From assembly GCA_963817895.1 (NCBI GenBank), contig CAWFQB010000005.1:832001-896000 (forward strand): a DNA stretch of 64,000 nt, in the 5' to 3' direction. Each line of letters begins with the position of its first letter. Position 1 is the first letter of the stretch. This DNA is from an uncultured Chthonomonadaceae bacterium (GTDB lineage: Bacteria; Armatimonadota; Chthonomonadetes; Chthonomonadales; Chthonomonadaceae). Both the position numbers and the translations under genes were made by a program. The notes beneath the pieces are model-generated. The model had not been told where the DNA came from, made no database searches, and worked only from the letters and a program-made list of their open reading frames with translations. Positions 14,122 through 22,622 of the stretch are shown in pieces.

Positions 14122-14506
14122 GGGTCTTCTTTCCCTTCAATATCGAAACGGCGTGAACAGTAATGGTACGGACATATAGCGCGATTTCGCCACAAATGCG
14201 CGTCAAGTCATGAATTCTGAATGGCTTAGTATCGGCGTAAAGCGCGAATGTCTGCATCGTTGCGCAGCGTGAAACCTCTCGACTTCTATACCTTGCCACT
14301 CTCCACACTTTACCAAGTGGAAAGTCAAGGGGATTTATATCATCTGGCGTATTTTACCTAATTAGCAGGAGAAACCGCGCCAAAGCAGGGAAAAACATGT
14401 TCGATGCGGTATAGAAGGGTACTTCGCCGTTTGGTGTATACTAGAAGGCATCCCGCAAGCGGATGAAGACTATGCCCGGACATTGAGGCAAGGAGAGGAC
14501 GAGAAG

Positions 14507-14959
14507 ATGAATATTGTAATTCTGGGCTGTGGCCGCGTCGGTTCCACGTTTGCGCGCCTGATGCACCGGGAAGGCCATAACGTTACCATCATTGATCTGC
14601 AAAGCGAGGCGTTCCGGCGGTTGGGAACCAAATTTCGCGGCAATCGCATTGTGGGCAACGGCATAGACGAGGATGTGCTGAGACGGGCGGGAATCGAGAA
14701 CGCGAATGTTTTCATTGCCGTGTCGCAGGGCGACAATCGCAACATCATGGCGGCGCAGATCGCGCAGCATGTGTTTCAGATAAAAACGGTCATCGCGCGT
14801 ATTTATGATCCCGTTCGCGCAGACCGCTACCGCCAACTCGGTATCACCACGCTTTGCACCACCACCATCGCTACCGGCCTGATGCGCGACTTTGTAACAA
14901 CCGGCGAGTGGGGCCTTGCCAAAGACTACTCGCAGGAATATTTGACGGCGAATGTGTGA
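14507..14959 (+). CDS. trkA: TrkA-family K+ uptake regulatory subunit (RCK_N only)
   Basis: IVILGCGRVG Rossmann motif; G.GIDEDVL.RAGIE.A...DNRNI. Confidence 0.88.
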   Translation: MNIVILGCGRVGSTFARLMHREGHNVTIIDLQSEAFRRLGTKFRGNRIVGNGIDEDVLRRAGIENANVFIAVSQGDNRNIMAAQIAQHVFQIKTVIARIYDPVRADRYRQLGITTLCTTTIATGLMRDFVTTGEWGLAKDYSQEYLTANV

Positions 14960-14962
14960 GGA

Positions 14963-15069
14963 GGTAGACGGTAGACGGTAGACGGTAGCATCCTTACTTG
15001 CAAGTTGTTCCTATCGAACAAAGCTTTCAGTAAACAGGCATTGCTACTGTCTACCATCTACCGTCTACC
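14963..15069. repeat. Inverted pair of tandem heptamer arrays (GGTAGAC)n / (GTCTACC)n
   Basis: Between the two trkA genes. Confidence 0.92.
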
Positions 15070-15084
15070 CCGAAGGATTGCATC

Positions 15085-15741
15085 ATGTACATCATCATCG
15101 TGGGCGGGGGGAACATCGGTTACTATCTGGCGAAAACGCTGGTATCCGCCCGGCATGAAGTTTTGCTAATGGAGAAGGATCGGACGCGCTACCGCACCAT
15201 TTCGGAAGAATTGGGCGAAGTCGTGATGCAGGGCGACGGCTGCGAAGTGGCGCAGCAGAATCAGGCGGGATTCGGGCGGGCGGACGCGGTTGTGGCCGCG
15301 ACGGGCAGCGACGACGATAACCTTGTCGTGTGCCAGATGGCGAAAATGGAACATAACGTGCCGCGCACCATTTCCCGCGTTAATGACCCGCGCAACGAGT
15401 CGCTGTTTCATAAATTGGGCATTGACGCGACGGTGAGTTCCACGAAAATCATCTACAATCTTATCGAGCAGGAGGTGGGCGGCGGTGAAGTGATTCCGCT
15501 TGCCGCTCTGAACCGGGGCAACATCGAGATTGTGGAAGTGGAAATCGGGCCGCGTTCTCCGGTGGTGGATCAGGAAATTCGCGCCCTGAAACTGCCCGCC
15601 GAGGCCCTGATTATCAGCGTGATTCGCCACGACCACGCCATTCTGCCCGCCGCCGATACGCGCTTTGAAATCGGCGACAGCGTAATTGCCCTTGTGGGCG
15701 CGGATCGGGAACACGACCTGCGCGATATTTTTGCGGAGTAA
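15085..15741 (+). CDS. trkA: TrkA-family K+ uptake protein (RCK_N + RCK_C)
   Basis: IIIVGGGNIG...GDGCE...ATGSDDDNLVVCQMAK...SPVVD..IR.L.LP. Confidence 0.9.
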   Translation: MYIIIVGGGNIGYYLAKTLVSARHEVLLMEKDRTRYRTISEELGEVVMQGDGCEVAQQNQAGFGRADAVVAATGSDDDNLVVCQMAKMEHNVPRTISRVNDPRNESLFHKLGIDATVSSTKIIYNLIEQEVGGGEVIPLAALNRGNIEIVEVEIGPRSPVVDQEIRALKLPAEALIISVIRHDHAILPAADTRFEIGDSVIALVGADREHDLRDIFAE

Positions 15742-15746
15742 TTATC

Positions 15747-16391
15747 ATGGCTCGGAAAGCGACACCGCGTAAAATGGATGGGCCGCCGGATTTTTGCGAT
15801 TACGGCGTGGGCATACTGGGGGAACGGCTGGATAAGATGTTGGCGCATACGGAGGGCGCGGCAAGCGGCACTCAGACCCGACCCATTCATCAGATGCGCG
15901 TGTGGTCCCGCCGTTCCCGCGCCGCGCTGGATGTGTTCGGCGTCTGTTTTGTGGATGCCGAGCCTGCCGCCTTTGCCGACATTGCGCAGGAGGTAAAAAC
16001 CGTCACGCGGGCATTGGGCGCGGCCCGTGATTTAGATGTGATGCTGGAAACCATGCGTACCCGCATGGAGAGCCTGCCGCCCGAACAGCGCGGCGGCGTG
16101 GACAGCTTTCTGGACTATTTGCAGGCGCAGCGCAATGACCGACAGCAGGCCGTCACCGATTCCGTCAAGCATCTGGAAAAAAGCAAACTGAAGCAGCAAT
16201 TGCAGCGACTGGCAGACAAACACGGCTACCGGTCGGTTACAGTAGAGATTCCCGCCCCGGAACCGAAAGCGGCAGAACCGCTGACCTCAGCATCCGCCAC
16301 ATCGAAAGCGGCGGAAGCATCCGTTGCAGATGCAGCGGAAGCATCGGTTGCAAAAGCAACGGCAGACAAAGCAAAGAATGGAACAGCCTGA
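15747..16391 (+). CDS. CHAD-domain protein (half 1)
   Basis: IHQMRVWSRRSRAAL...LGAARDLDV. Confidence 0.88.
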   Translation: MARKATPRKMDGPPDFCDYGVGILGERLDKMLAHTEGAASGTQTRPIHQMRVWSRRSRAALDVFGVCFVDAEPAAFADIAQEVKTVTRALGAARDLDVMLETMRTRMESLPPEQRGGVDSFLDYLQAQRNDRQQAVTDSVKHLEKSKLKQQLQRLADKHGYRSVTVEIPAPEPKAAEPLTSASATSKAAEASVADAAEASVAKATADKAKNGTA

Positions 16392-17455
16392 TGGCAAAAT
16401 CAAAGTCTTCTGCAAAAGTCAATCCACGTCAACCTGTGCTTGTCAATGCGGCCAAACTGATTACGCGGCGTCTGGACGAAATGCTTGCCTACGAGTCCTG
16501 CATCGCCGATCCTGACAACGTGTACGAACTCCATGAGATGCGGATTGCGGGCAAGCGCCTGCGCTACACGATGGAGGTCTTTCAGCCGGTTTATATCCGG
16601 TACACCGATGCGGGGCCGGAGTTCGGAACAATGCTGCAAGCCGTGAAGAATTTACAGGAGCATCTTGGAATTCTGCACGATGCCGATGTGCTGGTTCCGC
16701 AGATTCTGGAGCATTTGGGCCGCGTCGTCAAAAAGGGTTACGGCCTGCCTACTGCTGCCGCGCCCGACAGCATGAATGGTCAAGAGGGCAAGACTAAAGG
16801 CGCGAAGCAGAAAAATCATGCCGCTAAATCCGGCAAGCTGCAAGAGGTTCTGCCGATTGTAGGCGTCCATCAGGTAGATTACGCGGGTTGTGAGGGACTG
16901 CTGACGCTGTGCCGACAAATTCGCGCCGACCGTGACGCGCAATACGCGAAATTGACGCAGGAATGGCAGCAGATACGCGCCGAACAGGTGTTTGAGCGCC
17001 TGCGCGATCTGATCGCAAGGAGTGAGGGAACAGAGGGGAGAAAAGGAGAAAAGGAGAAAAGGAGAAAAGGAGAAGGGGAGGCAGAAAACGAACCCCAATC
17101 GGCAATCGAAAATCGAAAATCGGCAATCCCTTCATCCTTCATCCTTCATCCTTCATCCTTACCCAATGAGGAGCCGGATGCCGCCAACAGACAAACCCCG
17201 CAAGTCCAGCGCGCGCCCGGTGAACCGGGACACGTCGCCGCCGCCCGCCGCCGAGTCGCGCCCCGCGCCCCGGAAAAAGATGGCGAACCGGAGCCGCAAG
17301 GACACAAAGGCAGGCAAAGGCGAGACGCCAGCGCAAGCGCCCGAATTGACAGTTCTGCCCCTCCCGCCGCCCGAACCGGCAATACGCGCGCTCCGCGACA
17401 TCCCCGGACTGGGGCCGATACGGATTCGGGCGCTGGAAAAGGCGGGGCTGAGTAG
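16391..17455 (+). CDS. CHAD-domain protein (half 2); 3' end extended through repeat arrays
   Basis: LHEMRIAGKRLRYTME.F...LQEHLGILHDADV; tail after about 17030 is repeat-derived and overlaps the next gene. Confidence 0.8.
   Translation: MAKSKSSAKVNPRQPVLVNAAKLITRRLDEMLAYESCIADPDNVYELHEMRIAGKRLRYTMEVFQPVYIRYTDAGPEFGTMLQAVKNLQEHLGILHDADVLVPQILEHLGRVVKKGYGLPTAAAPDSMNGQEGKTKGAKQKNHAAKSGKLQEVLPIVGVHQVDYAGCEGLLTLCRQIRADRDAQYAKLTQEWQQIRAEQVFERLRDLIARSEGTEGRKGEKEKRRKGEGEAENEPQSAIENRKSAIPSSFILHPSSLPNEEPDAANRQTPQVQRAPGEPGHVAAARRRVAPRAPEKDGEPEPQGHKGRQRRDASASARIDSSAPPAARTGNTRAPRHPRTGADTDSGAGKGGAE
17035..17160. repeat. Composite arrays (GGAGAAAA)4 + (AATCGAA/AATCGGC)4 + (TTCATCC)4
   Basis: Three different tandem units within about 125 nt inside the CHAD ORF. 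Confidence 0.92.
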
Positions 17456-18050
17456 CCTGACGCTATTGCGCGACGCGACGCTGGAACGTCTGCTGGTTGT
17501 GCCGGGTATGAGCGAAATCAAGGCGCGGCACATACATACGTTTCTCGCCAACGCGCTTATTCTGACTGAGACGGAAGCAGTCACGAAATCGACGGATGGT
17601 GATGGGATTGCAGGGACGCAATCGGTTTCCATTCTGCCGACCACGCCTCTGCTCGACGCCAACAGCGGAAACGGCATCGCGGAAGCAGCACAACTATTAC
17701 CGACATGGCTGGTGGAAATGCAGGTTGCGCGGGATGAGACGGTTGCGCTGCTGACTAGCCGACACGCCCCGAATTTTCGCGCCCGTCTGCTGCGCGAACT
17801 GGTGCGGTTTGCCGCCGGCATCCCCGGATGGCAGCAGGGATTGATGCAGGGCGCGGAGAAAGATCAGGAACGCGCTTTGCGACGCGTCCGTCGCCTGCGC
17901 CTGTCGCTGATGGAAGCGCTGCCGCAAACCGAACCGGATCGCAAAACGCAGTCGCGCCTGGCCGAAGACATCGCGGAAGCCAGTGACCGCCTGTACGCTT
18001 TGAGCGGCCAAACGGAACCCACCCGCAGCACGGAGGACGCGCATGACTGA
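17178..18050 (+). CDS. Helix-hairpin-helix domain protein
   Basis: LRDIPGLGPIRIRALEKAG and LLVVPGMSEIKA tandem HhH motifs; GAGGAG RBS before ATG 17178. Confidence 0.75.
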   Translation: MPPTDKPRKSSARPVNRDTSPPPAAESRPAPRKKMANRSRKDTKAGKGETPAQAPELTVLPLPPPEPAIRALRDIPGLGPIRIRALEKAGLSSLTLLRDATLERLLVVPGMSEIKARHIHTFLANALILTETEAVTKSTDGDGIAGTQSVSILPTTPLLDANSGNGIAEAAQLLPTWLVEMQVARDETVALLTSRHAPNFRARLLRELVRFAAGIPGWQQGLMQGAEKDQERALRRVRRLRLSLMEALPQTEPDRKTQSRLAEDIAEASDRLYALSGQTEPTRSTEDAHD

Positions 18051-19110
18051 GGAAGAAGAGGAGAAGATACGAGATACGAGATACGAGATACGAGAAGGAG
18101 AGGAATCCCTCTCAACTCTCAACTCCCTGTATGCGGGCGTGGATGTTGGCACGAACTCCGTGAAGATGATTGTGGCGGATTTGGGAGAGGGGCGGGCGGA
18201 TCGCGTCTTTGAGCAGACTATTGTAACCCGGTTGGGCGAGGGGATGCAGGCGCAGGGCAACCGTTTGCGCGAAGCTGCCATGCGCCGCACCCTTGACGCT
18301 CTTGCGGAACTCGTGGACGCGGGACGGGCGCATCAGGCGCGCGCGTTTGCGGCGGTGGGGACGGCGGCATTGCGAGACGCGGAAAACCGTGACGATTTTT
18401 TGCAGAGGGCGCAGGAGCGAATGGGACTGAGCATTGACGTAATCCCCGGCGAGGAGGAGGCGCGATTGTCGTATCTGGCCGTGCGGCGCGACCCGCACTG
18501 GCGCGGGCAGGCGCATTTGCGCGTGATTGACATCGGCGGCGGCAGCACGGAGATCATCGAAGGGACGCCCAACGGGAACAACATCGCTTCGCGCATCAGC
18601 GTCAACTACGGGGCGGTGAAATTGACCGAGCAGTTTTTGCGCTCCGACCCGCCCACCGTTCAGCAGTTGGAAGACGCCAATCTTGCCGTACTCAAAGCAT
18701 TCGCGCGTATTGATGAGGAGGCTTTCCACTCCGCCGATACAGGGAGTGATAAGCCTGCCGCAACCGCCTTCGCGTCCTCGCAAGAGTATGCGCTGGTGGG
18801 GGTGGGCGGAACCGTCACCAATCTCGGCGCGATGGATCAGGGCGGCAAACTGGGCGACGAATCGCTCCACGGGCATCTGCTGACAGCCGACCAACTGGGC
18901 GAACACATTGACCGTCTGGCGACCCGGACTGTGGCGCAGCGGCTGGAACTCCCCGGCCTTGATCCACGTCGGGCTGACATCATTCTGGGAGGCGCGATCC
19001 TGCTGGCGCAGGCATTGTCCCGTCTGGATGCGCCCTCCCTCGCCATCAGCACGCGCGGCCTCCGCTGGGGGTTGCTGTATGACCGTTTTCAACAGGAGGT
19101 AGATGGGTAG
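18043..19110 (+). CDS. ppx: Ppx/GppA exopolyphosphatase (ASKHA domains)
   Basis: DVGTNSVK...TRLGEG...GTAALRDAEN...GEEEARLSY...DIGGGSTE...GVGGT...RADII.GG..L...GLRWGLL. Confidence 0.93.
   Translation: MTEEEEEKIRDTRYEIREGEESLSTLNSLYAGVDVGTNSVKMIVADLGEGRADRVFEQTIVTRLGEGMQAQGNRLREAAMRRTLDALAELVDAGRAHQARAFAAVGTAALRDAENRDDFLQRAQERMGLSIDVIPGEEEARLSYLAVRRDPHWRGQAHLRVIDIGGGSTEIIEGTPNGNNIASRISVNYGAVKLTEQFLRSDPPTVQQLEDANLAVLKAFARIDEEAFHSADTGSDKPAATAFASSQEYALVGVGGTVTNLGAMDQGGKLGDESLHGHLLTADQLGEHIDRLATRTVAQRLELPGLDPRRADIILGGAILLAQALSRLDAPSLAISTRGLRWGLLYDRFQQEVDG
18065..18125. repeat. (AGATACG)4 + (CTCAACT)2 arrays inside the ppx 5' end
   Basis: Encodes KIRDTRYEIRE...LSTLNS upstream of the first Ppx motif. 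Confidence 0.88.
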
Positions 19111-19183
19111 ATGGTAGATGGTAGATCAATCAATCGTGGTTTTCTACTCACCTACCCATCTACCCATCTACCCATCTACCTAC
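19098..19183. repeat. Inverted pair (G)GGTAGAT / ATCTACCC tandem arrays
   Basis: Left arm supplies the ppx TAG; right arm ends 6 nt before the HD-gene ATG. Confidence 0.9.
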
Positions 19184-19189
19184 TCAACC

Positions 19190-19810
19190 ATGAACCCAAA
19201 ACTCAACGCAATTCTGGAACTGGCGCGTCGTTATGATTATGACGCGGGACACGCGCATCAGGTGGAGTGCCTGGCGGGAACGCTGTTTATGGAGCTTCAG
19301 TCGCTGCATCAACTGGAGCGCGAAGACCGTAAACTGCTGGAGTACGCCGCCATTCTGCACGACATCGGCTATTATGTCAGCAGCAAGGGGCATCATCGCC
19401 ACGCCTTGCAGATGATTATGATGGAGCCGCTACCCGAGTTTACGCGGGAAGAAAAAGCGATTATCGCCAATCTTGCCCGCTACCATCGTAAAGTCCTGCC
19501 GACTATCGAGCATACCGCCTTCGGGATTTTGTCCGAGGGCGATAAGCAGCGCGTGGGCCTGCTTGCGCCCCTGCTGCGGCTTGCCGACGCGCTGGATCGG
19601 GGCCACAACAACCGCGTACAGGAACTGTTTTGCGACATAAGCGACGACGTGGTACTGATTTACGCGGGCGCGGAAGCCGAGTTGCCCGAGGAAGCCCGCG
19701 CTCTGGAACAGCGCGGCGACATGTTCCGGCACGTTTACCGCCGCGACCTGCAATTGCGCGTCCTGCGTCCCCGTCTGCCTGCCGCAAGCGCAGTGATGGT
19801 CGAGGGGTAG
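19190..19810 (+). CDS. HD-domain protein (stand-alone Ppx C-terminal HD domain)
   Basis: HAHQV..LA..LF...AAILHDIGY....GHHRH...IANLARYHRK...LRLADALDR. Confidence 0.9.
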   Translation: MNPKLNAILELARRYDYDAGHAHQVECLAGTLFMELQSLHQLEREDRKLLEYAAILHDIGYYVSSKGHHRHALQMIMMEPLPEFTREEKAIIANLARYHRKVLPTIEHTAFGILSEGDKQRVGLLAPLLRLADALDRGHNNRVQELFCDISDDVVLIYAGAEAELPEEARALEQRGDMFRHVYRRDLQLRVLRPRLPAASAVMVEG

Positions 19811-20245: not shown

Positions 20246-20292
20246 TTGACAATTTCGTGATGGCGCGGTACTATATCGTCAATTCCCGATAT
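20246..20292 (+). promoter_or_regulatory. Sigma70 promoter (TTGACA-N17-TACTAT) overlapped by an ATATCG-N8-CGATAT operator-like palindrome
   Basis: -35 at 20246, -10 at 20269, inverted repeat 20273..20292, directly before the ArsR gene. Confidence 0.75.
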
Positions 20293-20298
20293 GAGGAT

Positions 20299-20730
20299 AT
20301 GAGCGTGAATGATTTAGTTTTACTTGGCAAGGCGCTTGCTGACCCCACGCGCATTCGTATTCTGGCTCTGCTGCGCGGCGGGGAGTTGTGCGTTTGCGAG
20401 ATTGGCGACGCGCTGGAGATGAGTCAGTCTACCCTGTCCACGCACCTGCAAACTATTCGGCAGGCCGGTCTTGTTTCCACCCGTAAAAACGCGAAGTGGA
20501 GTTATTACGGCCTTGAGCCTGCCGCTCTGCCCGTTTTGGAATCTATTTTCGCGCATTACCAGGACGTTCTTGATGTAGACCAACGCTTGAAGCGCGACCA
20601 TGAGCGCGTGGAATGTCGCCTGCAATTGCGGGTGAACGGCTGCTGCGTTATCGGAATTGCGGCTCTGGAAAACAGCCTGATGGCAGGCTGTTGTTCGGAA
20701 ACTCAAACGAAGGGAGGTGAAGCGAAATGA
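20299..20730 (+). CDS. ArsR/SmtB-family metalloregulator with Cys-rich C-terminus
   Basis: KALADPTRIRIL.LL...ELCVCEI..AL..SQSTLSTHL..IRQAGLV; C-terminal GCC and GCCS pairs. Confidence 0.93.
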   Translation: MSVNDLVLLGKALADPTRIRILALLRGGELCVCEIGDALEMSQSTLSTHLQTIRQAGLVSTRKNAKWSYYGLEPAALPVLESIFAHYQDVLDVDQRLKRDHERVECRLQLRVNGCCVIGIAALENSLMAGCCSETQTKGGEAK

Positions 20731-20846
20731 CTCTGATTGAACTTACGCCCATCGCGGCAACGACGGAAACGGAGGGCGATTGCTGCCCGTGCCAATGCGA
20801 TTGCGAACCCGGCTGCAAGTGCGGCGGCTGTCCGTGCTGCGAGTAA
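20727..20846 (+). CDS. Metallothionein-like 39-aa peptide with 10 Cys (not in ORF track)
   Basis: MTLIELTPIAATTETEGDCCPCQCDCEPGCKCGGCPCCE*; GGAGGT RBS; ATGA overlap with the ArsR stop. Confidence 0.85.
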   Translation: MTLIELTPIAATTETEGDCCPCQCDCEPGCKCGGCPCCE

Positions 20847-20849
20847 TTT

Positions 20850-20973
20850 TTACCGGATGTTGAAAACACCCGGCAGAAAAGTGCAAGCGTCCTGCGGACG
20901 CGGGAATCTTGATAAAGAGTCGCGTCCGCAGGACGCTTGTTTTGTTGAGACGGGGATTTTCAATCCCCGGTAA
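20850..20973. repeat. REP/REPIN-like composite palindrome with GCGTCCTGCGGACGC core
   Basis: Outer TTACCGG...TTGAAAA / TTTTCAA...CCGGTAA; inner inverted hairpins; related to 22628, 24611 and 54061. Confidence 0.8.
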
Positions 20974-21107: not shown

Positions 21108-22622
21108 GTGACGAACTCGAAAGTGTGCGTGATCGGGCTGGACTGCGCCGCGCCCGAACTGGTATTTGATTTGTGGGCCGATTTGCTGCCTAATCTGTGC
21201 GGCCTGATGCAGTCCGGCATGTATGGGCCATTGGAGAGTACGACGCCTCCGATTACCGTACCCGCGTGGATGTGCATGATGACCGGCAAAGACCCCGGCA
21301 CTCTGGGCATTTACGGCTTCCGCAACCGCCGCGACCACTCCTATGAGGGGCTTGCGTTCGCGTCCGGCAAAATGGTACAGGAACCGACGCTGTGGGATGT
21401 GCTGGCGGAACACAGCAAGCGTACCATCGCGCTCGGCGTACCCCTTACATATCCTCCGCGTCCCATTCACGGCCTGCTTGTCACCGATTTTCTGGCTCCC
21501 AATGTGGACAGCGATTACACCTACCCGCCGGAACTCAAACACGAAATCAAAGAGGTGGTAGGCGAGTACCTGTTCGATACCCGCGAGTTTCGCACGGAAG
21601 ACAAGGCGAAACTGCTGGATGATATTTACACCATGACCGCCCGCCGCTTTCAACTGGCGCAACATCTGATAACCACCAAGCCGTGGGACTTCTTCATCAT
21701 GGTGGAAATGGGGCCAGATCGAATCCATCACGCCTTCTGGAAGTATTTCGACCCCAAGCACCCCAAATACATCCCCGGGAACCCCTTTGAACACGCCATT
21801 CGCGATTACTACATCGCCCTCGACGCGCATATCGGGCAACTGCTTTCCACACTGGACGAAGACACGCGCATTTTGATTGTGTCTGATCACGGCGCGAAGC
21901 GAATGGATGGCGGCCTGTGTTTCAACGACTGGCTGATACAGGAGGGCTATTTAACGCTCAAGGAAACGCCCACTCCCGGCACAAAGTTTTCGCCCGCGCT
22001 CGTGGATTGGACGCGAACCAAAGCGTGGGGCGACGGGGGCTACTACGGACGTTTGTTCCTGAACGTGCAGGAGCGCGAACCGCAGGGCATTGTGCCGCCT
22101 GAAGACGTGGAAGCCCTGAAAGTGGAACTGACCACCAAACTGGAAGCCTTGCCCAATGAACACGGCAAGCCACTTGGCAACCGCGTTTTCCGCCCCGAAA
22201 CGCTTTACGCCCAATGCCGCAATGTCGCGCCCGACCTGATCGTATACTTTGGCGATCTGCACTGGCGCTCTGTGGGCAGTCTGGGCCATCCTCAAATCTG
22301 GACACACGACAACGACACCGGCCCCGACGACGCCAACCACGCGCAGCACGGCATTTTCATTATGGCAGAAGAAAAGAAAAGGAGAAAAGGAGAAGAGGAG
22401 AAAAGGAGACCCAATCCACAATCCACAATCCACAATCCACAATCGGGTTTGTCCCTGTACGATGTCGCGCCGACGGTTTTGAACGCGATGGGGATTGCGG
22501 TTCCGGCAGGGATGGGACGCAACGCGATTGGAACTGCGCCGACTCTGCGCCCGGACAGCGCGTATAGTGAAGAGGAAGAGGCGGAACTGGCGCGGCGATT
22601 GGAAGATTTGGGATACTTGTAA
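21108..22622 (+). CDS. Alkaline-phosphatase-superfamily phosphodiesterase/nucleotide pyrophosphatase
   Basis: VIGLDCA...PPITVPAW..MMTGKDPG.LGIYGF...DRIHHAFW...IVSDHG...DVAPTVL...RLEDLGYL; start approximate. Confidence 0.9.
   Translation: MTNSKVCVIGLDCAAPELVFDLWADLLPNLCGLMQSGMYGPLESTTPPITVPAWMCMMTGKDPGTLGIYGFRNRRDHSYEGLAFASGKMVQEPTLWDVLAEHSKRTIALGVPLTYPPRPIHGLLVTDFLAPNVDSDYTYPPELKHEIKEVVGEYLFDTREFRTEDKAKLLDDIYTMTARRFQLAQHLITTKPWDFFIMVEMGPDRIHHAFWKYFDPKHPKYIPGNPFEHAIRDYYIALDAHIGQLLSTLDEDTRILIVSDHGAKRMDGGLCFNDWLIQEGYLTLKETPTPGTKFSPALVDWTRTKAWGDGGYYGRLFLNVQEREPQGIVPPEDVEALKVELTTKLEALPNEHGKPLGNRVFRPETLYAQCRNVAPDLIVYFGDLHWRSVGSLGHPQIWTHDNDTGPDDANHAQHGIFIMAEEKKRRKGEEEKRRPNPQSTIHNPQSGLSLYDVAPTVLNAMGIAVPAGMGRNAIGTAPTLRPDSAYSEEEEAELARRLEDLGYL
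22371..22444. repeat. (GGAGAAAA)n + (AATCCAC)4 arrays in frame within the phosphodiesterase
   Basis: Encodes EKKRRKGEEEKRRPNPQSTIHNPQS between GIFIMA and GLSLYDVAPT. Confidence 0.92.

Follow-up and report, generated by a model that had tools for sequence, protein, structure and literature searches.

A small cysteine-rich gene translationally coupled to an arsR-family repressor in Armatimonadota, a candidate histidine-free metallothionein operon

In a contig of an uncultured Chthonomonadaceae bacterium (CAWFQB010000005.1, positions 832,001 to 896,000; this whole stretch of 64,000 nucleotides is called the window), an ArsR-family repressor gene runs into a 39-codon open reading frame (ORF) rich in cysteine codons. 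We asked whether this ORF is a gene, what its product does, and to which ligand the repressor responds. Comparison of related genomes confirmed, at the level of sequence, that the ORF is a conserved gene whose Cys core is under purifying selection. We consider it probable that the unit is an inducible two-gene operon, in which a His-free metallothionein-like chelator sequesters a soft metal or metalloid through its thiols, and it would represent a real, undescribed variant of the ArsR-metallothionein theme. The whole unit of sensor, operator, and candidate chelator occupies 600 bp, and its elements, with the repeat that lies directly behind it, are as follows.

20246..20274, + strand: candidate sigma-70-type promoter, TTGACA (20246-20251), 17 nt, and TACTAT (20269-20274), matching 10 of 12 consensus positions.
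20273..20292, strandless: putative operator formed by the palindrome ATATCG-N8-CGATAT, which overlaps the last bases of the -10 element and also the presumed +1.
20299..20730, + strand: arsR-family repressor gene, 143 aa counted from ATG 20299.
20713..20718, + strand: GGAGGT ribosome-binding site (RBS) that serves the peptide gene and lies within the 3' end of arsR.
20727..20846, + strand: gene for a Cys-rich mini-protein of 39 aa (4.0 kDa, pI ~4), its ATG overlapping the arsR stop codon.
20781..20843, + strand: Cys core, residues 19-39 of the peptide, with 10 Cys in 5 CxC, 2 CC, and 3 CxxC spacings.
20850..20973, strandless: long inverted repeat directly 3' of the peptide stop codon, a copy of a repeat dispersed in the genome.

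The peptide has 10 Cys within its last 21 residues (25.6% Cys overall) and contains no His, Phe, Trp, or Tyr, as the original prediction had described; the GGAGGT motif and the ATGA shared by the peptide start and the arsR stop (20727-20730) were likewise where it had placed them. Composition by itself is not decisive for a gene because such segments also arise elsewhere in the source genome (G000, 81% complete), where 5 of 186,128 stop-to-stop segments have at least 10 Cys in the last 25 codons and 31 open segments have at least 8. Among 745 short ORFs with an ATG and a GGAGG RBS, this one has the highest Cys density. The ORF is taken as a gene because orthologues follow an orthologous arsR amid differing flanks and because the core is under selection. 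Two other genomes of the genus (G001, 97% complete, and G002) contain an orthologous arsR (84% and 76% identical), then the same RBS, and then an orthologous peptide gene (37 and 40 aa), and the genes flanking the unit differ across all three genomes. In the three-genome comparison the proportion of nonsynonymous differences (pN) was 0.03-0.08 in the last 14 codons, versus a proportion of synonymous differences (pS) of 0.27-0.50, values that are indicative given the few sites; pN was 0.17-0.50 in the first 16 codons. The adjoining arsR has a pS of ~0.5-0.7, and the start, stop, RBS, and core of the peptide gene are kept. The G002 orthologue has a single His, in its N-terminal part, and an AAGG(G)AGGTGA element precedes the peptide gene in G001, G002, and the related genome G005. 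Conservation of the ORF, on which the original prediction had staked its claim, was thus found.

Gene callers mostly overlook the family. Eight of 10 family peptides that we looked up are absent from a collection of 15 billion proteins, and the other 2 are nameless there. A profile made from the three sequences recovered five more small proteins among 6 candidates, one differing from the 39-aa peptide by a single residue; four of the five have a longest contig equal in length to that of an ArsR match. The family profile had P0124, already a training sequence, as its sole match among 1.84 billion representative sequences. Scans of Pfam, NCBIfam, and PDB sequences gave no family match for the peptides; in Pfam, no family appeared even at E ≤ 1 for the 39-aa peptide or for all 17 aligned family members. 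The ESM Atlas contained only unnamed clusters (0.77-0.82), which are leads only. An AlphaFold2 model of the peptide was devoid of secondary structure, but with a pLDDT (predicted local distance difference test) score of 54 and a shallow alignment it is too weak for a fold search.

How closely is the peptide tied to this repressor? As the query we aligned 76 ArsR homologues taken from a list of 120. It gave 420 genome loci and 568 metagenome loci, of each of which we kept the best 80, and a 401-genome sample of the phylum, in which 35 genomes matched the alignment at E ≤ 1e-30, contributed 30 loci. The subfamily count covers 122 distinct ArsRs with at least 130 bits and at least 200 nt of downstream sequence; this filter left out L120, whose flank is short, and L196, whose Cys are more spread. 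Because related loci are not independent observations, the counts are descriptive and not tests. A separate Cys-rich ORF follows 25 of the 122 ArsRs, and 3 others have an in-frame Cys-rich tail. The search for short Cys-rich ORFs behind ArsR homologues that the original prediction had proposed found such mini-genes in 16 of the 24 subfamily rows titled Armatimonadota or Abditibacterium versus none of the 53 other genome rows, and in none of 70 control loci (two sets of ArsRs, 0 of 25 and 0 of 45). A search that started from the peptide gave 13 matches in 12 of the 401 genomes. Eleven lie directly behind an arsR, 10 of them of this subfamily (mostly training sequences) and 1 another ArsR; of the other two, one precedes the gene of a candidate UxxU selenoprotein described below and one stands just after a selenocysteine tRNA (tRNA-Sec) gene. 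By these counts, the link of the Cys peptide to this ArsR subfamily is specific. The copy near tRNA-Sec (L233:1253-1345) is a leaderless family member with 16 Cys, begins ~110 nt after the tRNA, and has no arsR upstream. In a more distant branch of the ArsR subfamily (L210-L215), the place of the peptide gene is taken by that of a membrane protein (167-182 aa, Cys-rich at the C-terminus) or of an HMA-like domain.

The family occurs in four forms with Cys contents of 21-48% and almost no His in the cytoplasmic ones. The first, seen in the source genus, joins an acidic N-terminus to the Cys core; the second is leaderless, with 25-47 aa, 9-16 Cys, and neither His nor aromatic residues; the third has 42-85 aa, a basic-hydrophobic start that by eye resembles a signal peptide, and a Cys/Pro tail. 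In the fourth, ArsR itself carries the peptide as an in-frame tail, which retains an RBS and a Met of its own (L033, L088, and L103, and independently protein P0115). When the forms are aligned, M1 and two Cys are the only invariant positions. Stand-alone units end in hairpins and have no conserved downstream gene, which suggests that the peptide itself is what matters in the unit.

The repressor scores well above the cut-offs of PF01022 (66.9 bits, cut-off 22) and NF033788 (95.2 bits, cut-off 55), and its model (mean pLDDT 87.7) matches the fold of HlyU, CadC, and SmtB. Its true start is probably GTG 20305, 7 nt after a GAGGA, since close ArsR homologues begin with MND; residue numbers here count from ATG 20299. 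The ELCVCE motif, with C31-V-C33 in alpha3, and the two C-terminal CC pairs claimed for it, C115-C116 and C131-C132, are all present, but only the first pair is conserved. C116 is found in at least 90% of the 76 homologues, while C131-C132 is unconserved and stands at the start of the low-confidence tail of the model. Across the subfamily, alpha3 CVC occurs in 124 of 124 members, a C-terminal Cys in 123 (as CC in 83), and the alpha5 His motif in none. A Cys at +5 of the motif, present in 48 of the 124, is absent from the source ArsR, which also has no Cys ahead of C31. The conserved C-terminal Cys lies in an extension beyond two extra helices, and structure comparison found no solved structure covering this extension. 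To judge from these residues, the repressor is a thiol sensor with no Zn-type alpha5 site. In a plasmid collection, no match to the ArsR was found at E ≤ 1e-20. An unrooted tree of 36 ArsRs has a split with 97/94 support that puts the source ArsR on the side of aquaporin/ArsC-linked ArsRs, apart from the Fimbriimonadaceae-type loci.

The predicted operator palindrome recurs across the subfamily. Allowing up to 3 mismatches, we found its consensus in 78 of the 81 distinct upstream regions versus ~3 in shuffled ones, nearly always 12-46 nt before the start. A matrix of the operator found a single strong site in the source genome (28.9 bits), at this locus, and the next best scored 16.4. Because just one strong site exists, the regulon of the repressor in this genome is probably arsR and the peptide gene only; the next-best site, C1:95902, behind which lies a gene that we take to be fasciclin-like, was not accepted as a second one. 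The promoter called at this locus, TTGACA-17-TACTAT, is the sole promoter-like site in 2 kb, but shuffled sequences likewise average 1.0. The call is therefore supported by the conservation of TTGACA and the -10 region in the G001, G002, and G005 loci and not by its score, as a site of this kind is expected about once per 2 kb by chance.

Taken together in the favored reading, a dimer of ArsR would bind ATATCG-N8-CGATAT over the -10/+1 region and repress its own transcript, as the position and conservation of the operator and knowledge of the family suggest. The inducer would be bound by C31 and C33 of alpha3 together with C116, and possibly C115, and would release the repressor from DNA. Translation of the 39-aa peptide would then begin at a strong RBS of its own, in coupling with arsR, and the peptide would remain unstructured until loaded. 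Its ten thiolates, with no His, would bind clusters of ions, whereupon the free ion would fall and repression would be restored. By the stoichiometries of thiolate clusters, ten thiolates would correspond to about three As(III) or Zn/Cd ions or to about six Cu(I) ions.

Which ligand induces the unit? Dominant As(III) sensors are described as having C-(V/A)-C and one more Cys, either close by or in the C-terminal region; in Cd/Pb sensors, two N-terminal Cys are said to accompany the CxC (PMC11672702). The source ArsR lacks the N-terminal Cys pair of the CadC/AztR type (alpha3N). Genes for ArsC, aquaporin (MIP), or ArsM-type proteins are present in 55 of 86 subfamily loci without the peptide and in 7 of 32 with it (loci of 1-8.5 kb, some near-duplicates remaining). 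In L033, one perfect operator is common to the arsR with the Cys tail and a divergent aquaporin-ArsC operon, and peptide and ars genes are mixed in L103, L122, L124, L129, and L133. Arsenite is favored because aquaporin, ArsC, and ArsM are the usual cargo of the subfamily. Provided that the favored reading holds, we would give As(III)/Sb(III) about an even chance of being the inducer, the soft cations Cu(I), Ag, Cd, Hg, and Pb a smaller but substantial share, and something else the small remainder. A bolder version is tentative and more doubtful than the chelator itself: the peptide could be a bacterial metallothionein devoted to arsenic and controlled by an As(III) sensor, and could found a modular family with cytoplasmic, secreted, and repressor-fused members, which in some Armatimonadota would work with a UxxU envelope protein.

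Several observations weigh against the chelator or against arsenic as its ligand. The only PDB match of the family profile, 1t2y, has an E value of 5.1, which is not significant and is driven by composition, and the peptides are so short and so biased in composition that homology among all the forms cannot be proved. The CxC and the C-terminal CC could equally form a four-thiolate site of the Cd/Pb type; with the CC standing in for the N-terminal Cys, sequence does not fix the ligand. In 25 of the 32 peptide loci there is no ars gene in the DNA examined. A P1B ATPase of the Cu(I) type (above the TIGR01511 cut-off) lies 57 bp from arsR on the opposite strand in L037-L039, the same ArsR subfamily heads Czc-like resistance-nodulation-division (RND) pumps elsewhere, and many peptide loci of the Fimbriimonadaceae type continue into the candidate UxxU selenoprotein gene and a thioredoxin-like gene. 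The 36-row tree does not settle the sister group of the source ArsR clade.

The original prediction of resistance by sequestration only holds for the operon but is overstated for the cell. The source genome has a second ars-like operon at C5:409894-412406 (L221:1894-4407, - strand) whose ArsR has several CC pairs and whose other genes encode DUF6428, an aquaporin, and a metallophosphoesterase, and a metal island at ~C2:180000-219300 with two P1B ATPases, a multicopper-oxidase-like protein, cation diffusion facilitator (CDF) transporters, a MerR-like regulator, an ArsM-like methyltransferase, and an RND system (some of these labels were assigned by eye). In relatives, moreover, the peptide gene is part of operons that also encode transporters and redox proteins, against the sequestration-only view. 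Acr3 (PF01758) was not found in the source genome at its 81% completeness. Several genes of the C2 island seem frameshifted, possibly through long-read assembly errors, and in L236 a CC-type ArsR similar to that of the second operon precedes a family peptide.

The candidate UxxU protein, apparently an undescribed double selenoprotein and named for its two putative selenocysteines (Sec, U), was seen at L036:4428-5081, L037:4424-5068, L106:1035-1667, L117:3414-4064, and 12 more loci, and also in L230 and L236, with its gene directly behind the Cys peptide or ArsR. It has a signal-peptide-like start and the invariant sequence P-T-[TGA]-x-G-[TGA]-P-G-E-G, followed by ~180 aa that end in Phe and by eye resemble an outer-membrane barrel. 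Read with TGA as Sec, it matched no NCBIfam family. SelA is present in all 5 genomes tested, and hairpins resembling the selenocysteine insertion sequence (SECIS) stand behind the UxxU codons in 3 of 4 folds, yet they are no more stable than shuffles. The protein was not identified in the available part of a 2026 selenoproteome review (PMC13188914). At L043:4394-5644 and ~18 similar loci, mostly from Verrucomicrobiota, a subfamily ArsR precedes a protein of ~415 aa that is rich in Cys at its N-terminus and has a corrinoid domain like that of MtrA (NF002128, 322 bits, below cut-off). This may be a corrinoid-dependent protein for methylation or demethylation of a metal or metalloid, unrecognized in bacteria.

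Five other explanations of the peptide were weighed against the favored one. The best survivor, though an unlikely one, is that the peptide serves the sensor: as a buffer it would set the threshold or shut-off of ArsR, or as a metallochaperone it would pass the ion to a transporter, and in either role it would do little bulk detoxification. This would fit the translational coupling to arsR, the in-frame tails with their own RBS and Met in L033, L088, and L103, the same join in P0115, and the single strong operator that would limit the regulon to arsR and the peptide gene. However, three of the peptide matches are not found with an ArsR of this subfamily, and for two of these there is no arsR upstream; the forms with a signal-peptide-like start would exit the cytoplasm; and a peptide that is the only other target of the repressor fits better as its output.

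Slightly less probable still is a unit that answers thiol-reactive, sulfur, or selenium stress, with the peptide as a sacrificial reductant or a sink for persulfide or selenium. Certain ArsRs are described as sensing reactive sulfur or peroxide (PMC11672702), the peptide gene in Fimbriimonadaceae-type loci is followed by the candidate UxxU selenoprotein and thioredoxin-like genes, and one peptide copy stands just after tRNA-Sec. On the other hand, the repressor bears the alpha3 C-V-C of arsenic and metal sensors, aquaporin and ArsC are the commonest cargo of its subfamily, and the UxxU gene was not found in the 81% complete source genome. Selenoproteins themselves are described as often tied to Hg or As resistance (PMC13188914), which removes some of the force of their presence.

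We regard it as very improbable that the peptide is the precursor of a ribosomally synthesized and post-translationally modified peptide (RiPP), with a leader and a Cys core modified by a radical SAM enzyme, a multinuclear non-heme iron-dependent oxidative enzyme (MNIO), or the like, an alternative that the original prediction had raised. The acidic stretch of 18 residues ahead of the core does look precursor-like, and G000 and G002 each have one MNIO gene (PF05114), on other contigs. But it is the N-terminus that varies (pN 0.17-0.50 versus 0.03-0.08 in the core), the reverse of a conserved leader with a variable core, and many relatives have no leader at all. No maturase family was found in a scan of 116 neighboring proteins, chosen from 222 called ORFs and supplemented by the window genes, the source genome gave no SPASM match and has its nearest radical SAM gene ~118 kb away, and MNIO was not found in the peptide-bearing genomes G001 (97% complete), G005, and G166.

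Equally improbable is an attenuator in which ribosomes stalling at the Cys codons would control the next gene. Polycysteine short ORFs are reported to act in this way in mycobacteria (bioRxiv 10.1101/834739), a hairpin lies 3' of the ORF, and the ORF overlaps the next gene in some relatives; yet here it is the last gene of the unit and not the first, in G001 and G002 it is followed by convergent, unrelated genes, leaving nothing to attenuate, the Cys are spaced as CxC, CC, and CxxC with conserved Pro, Gly, and Glu, and the hairpin is a dispersed repeat. Least probable of all is a chance ORF or the dead remnant of a longer ars operon, for although comparable Cys-rich frames arise by chance, as the 31 open segments illustrate, the start, stop, RBS, and core are kept in three genomes despite the divergence of arsR, and the association is specific.

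Neither neighbor of the unit in the window is related to it: one gene, divergent, belongs to the Rid family, and the other, downstream, to a phosphodiesterase family. The ~120-nt palindromic hairpin at 20850-20973 is stable (folding z = -9.3), but it was rejected as a dedicated terminator: it is a genome-wide repeat, with 66 BLAST pieces in the source genome, several near full length, is like a repetitive extragenic palindromic (REP) element or a miniature inverted-repeat transposable element (MITE), and lies outside the conserved unit. The transcript may nevertheless end at the repeat, and relatives have other, differing hairpins 3' of the peptide gene. An Rfam scan gave only chance matches to miRNA hairpins, all under the gathering score. 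A look-up of RNA data containing the locus listed none, which speaks neither for nor against transcription. Upstream of the unit, window positions 14483-19810 contain a polyphosphate-related operon with two TrkA-like genes (by eye), two CHAD-domain genes, a helix-hairpin-helix gene, Ppx/GppA, and an HD/Ppx domain III gene. Short tandem insertions of low complexity lie in frame within genes at approximately 17022-17180, 22380-22440, and 18043-18090; the repeated units are EKRRKGE and NPQSTIH for a CHAD protein and the phosphodiesterase, and DTRYEIR at the start of Ppx/GppA.

How does the unit compare with known systems? In SmtB-SmtA of Synechococcus, BxmR-BmtA, and AzuR-NmtA, an ArsR/SmtB repressor controls a small Cys-rich protein through a promoter operator (PMC7387436, PMC8790569), and the present unit shares this mode of control. 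SmtB-SmtA is divergent, whereas the two genes here have a co-transcribed layout on the same strand and are translationally coupled. SmtA and BmtA are described as using His as a ligand and as adopting a zinc-finger fold of the GATA type that includes hydrophobic residues (PMC7387436, PMC10612145), unlike the peptide, which has neither His nor aromatics; the original prediction was right on both differences. The alpha5 DxHx10Hx2(H/E) Zn site of SmtB-type repressors is the motif lacking here and in the whole subfamily. PF02069, the SmtA/BmtA family, did not match the peptide and stayed below cut-off in 5 genomes, while a control genome gave one match over cut-off. Judged by profile, ligands, layout, and sensor, the Cys peptide is not a member of the SmtA/BmtA family.

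The peptide also differs from other metallothioneins. MymT of Mycobacterium tuberculosis contains His and is under a copper-sensing repressor of another family; we compared it with the peptide through the Pfam, NCBIfam, and PDB scans only, which gave no match. The Cys-only ligands, size, CxC/CC spacing, and Gly/Ser/Pro linkers of the peptide resemble those of 1t2y, a His-free eukaryotic metallothionein of 25 aa, whereas the peptide is bacterial and under an ArsR repressor. The beta domain of animal metallothioneins is likewise short and His-free, with nine Cys. MymT, for its part, is described as another small bacterial metallothionein outside the SmtA sequence family (PMC10612145, PMC11672702). 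Metallothioneins are defined as Cys-rich proteins of ~3.5-14 kDa with C-X-C, C-X-X-C, and C-C motifs (PMC13578184), and the peptide falls within this compositional definition with 4.0 kDa, 25.6% Cys, 5 CxC, 3 CxxC, and 2 CC. The prediction of a new metallothionein type thus agrees with the composition and with the lack of a Pfam, NCBIfam, or PDB family, but the peptide stands as a candidate named from its sequence.

Characterized bacterial metallothioneins are few (SmtA/BmtA types, MymT, and those of Pseudomonas) and are described as using His (PMC13578184, PMC7387436, PMC11705764, PMC10612145). A His-free, eukaryote-like family that gene callers mostly miss would widen this class. The metallothionein candidates of DeepMetagenome are similarly short, with a mean of ~40 aa; they are unannotated, and 20 of 23 raised Cu/Cd tolerance in Escherichia coli (PMC11705764). 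They average 10.6% Cys and 13.3% His (PMC11705764), in contrast to the Cys-rich, nearly His-free family described here, and ArsR is never mentioned in that report (PMC11705764). We found no publication on the peptide family or on Armatimonadota metallothioneins in a literature search that lay mostly outside subscription journals and excluded supplements; PMC8692599, considered as a possible report of the family, was unrelated in the part available. Since the 600-bp unit holds sensor, operator, and candidate chelator together and natural versions of 25 residues exist, the system should be cheap to test, with possible use in biosensors and in the capture of arsenic or metals.

With As(III) sensors of the EcArsR, CgArsR, and AfArsR types, the repressor has in common the alpha3 C-V-C and a further Cys in the C-terminal region (PMC11672702). 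It differs from them in that its conserved Cys stands in an extension after two extra helices and in that the cargo in this genus is the peptide only. According to a 2025 abstract, ars operons had not been found to contain a sequestration gene (PMC12093948). If arsenite is the ligand, the peptide gene would fill this intracellular sequestration role, said to be missing from ars operons.

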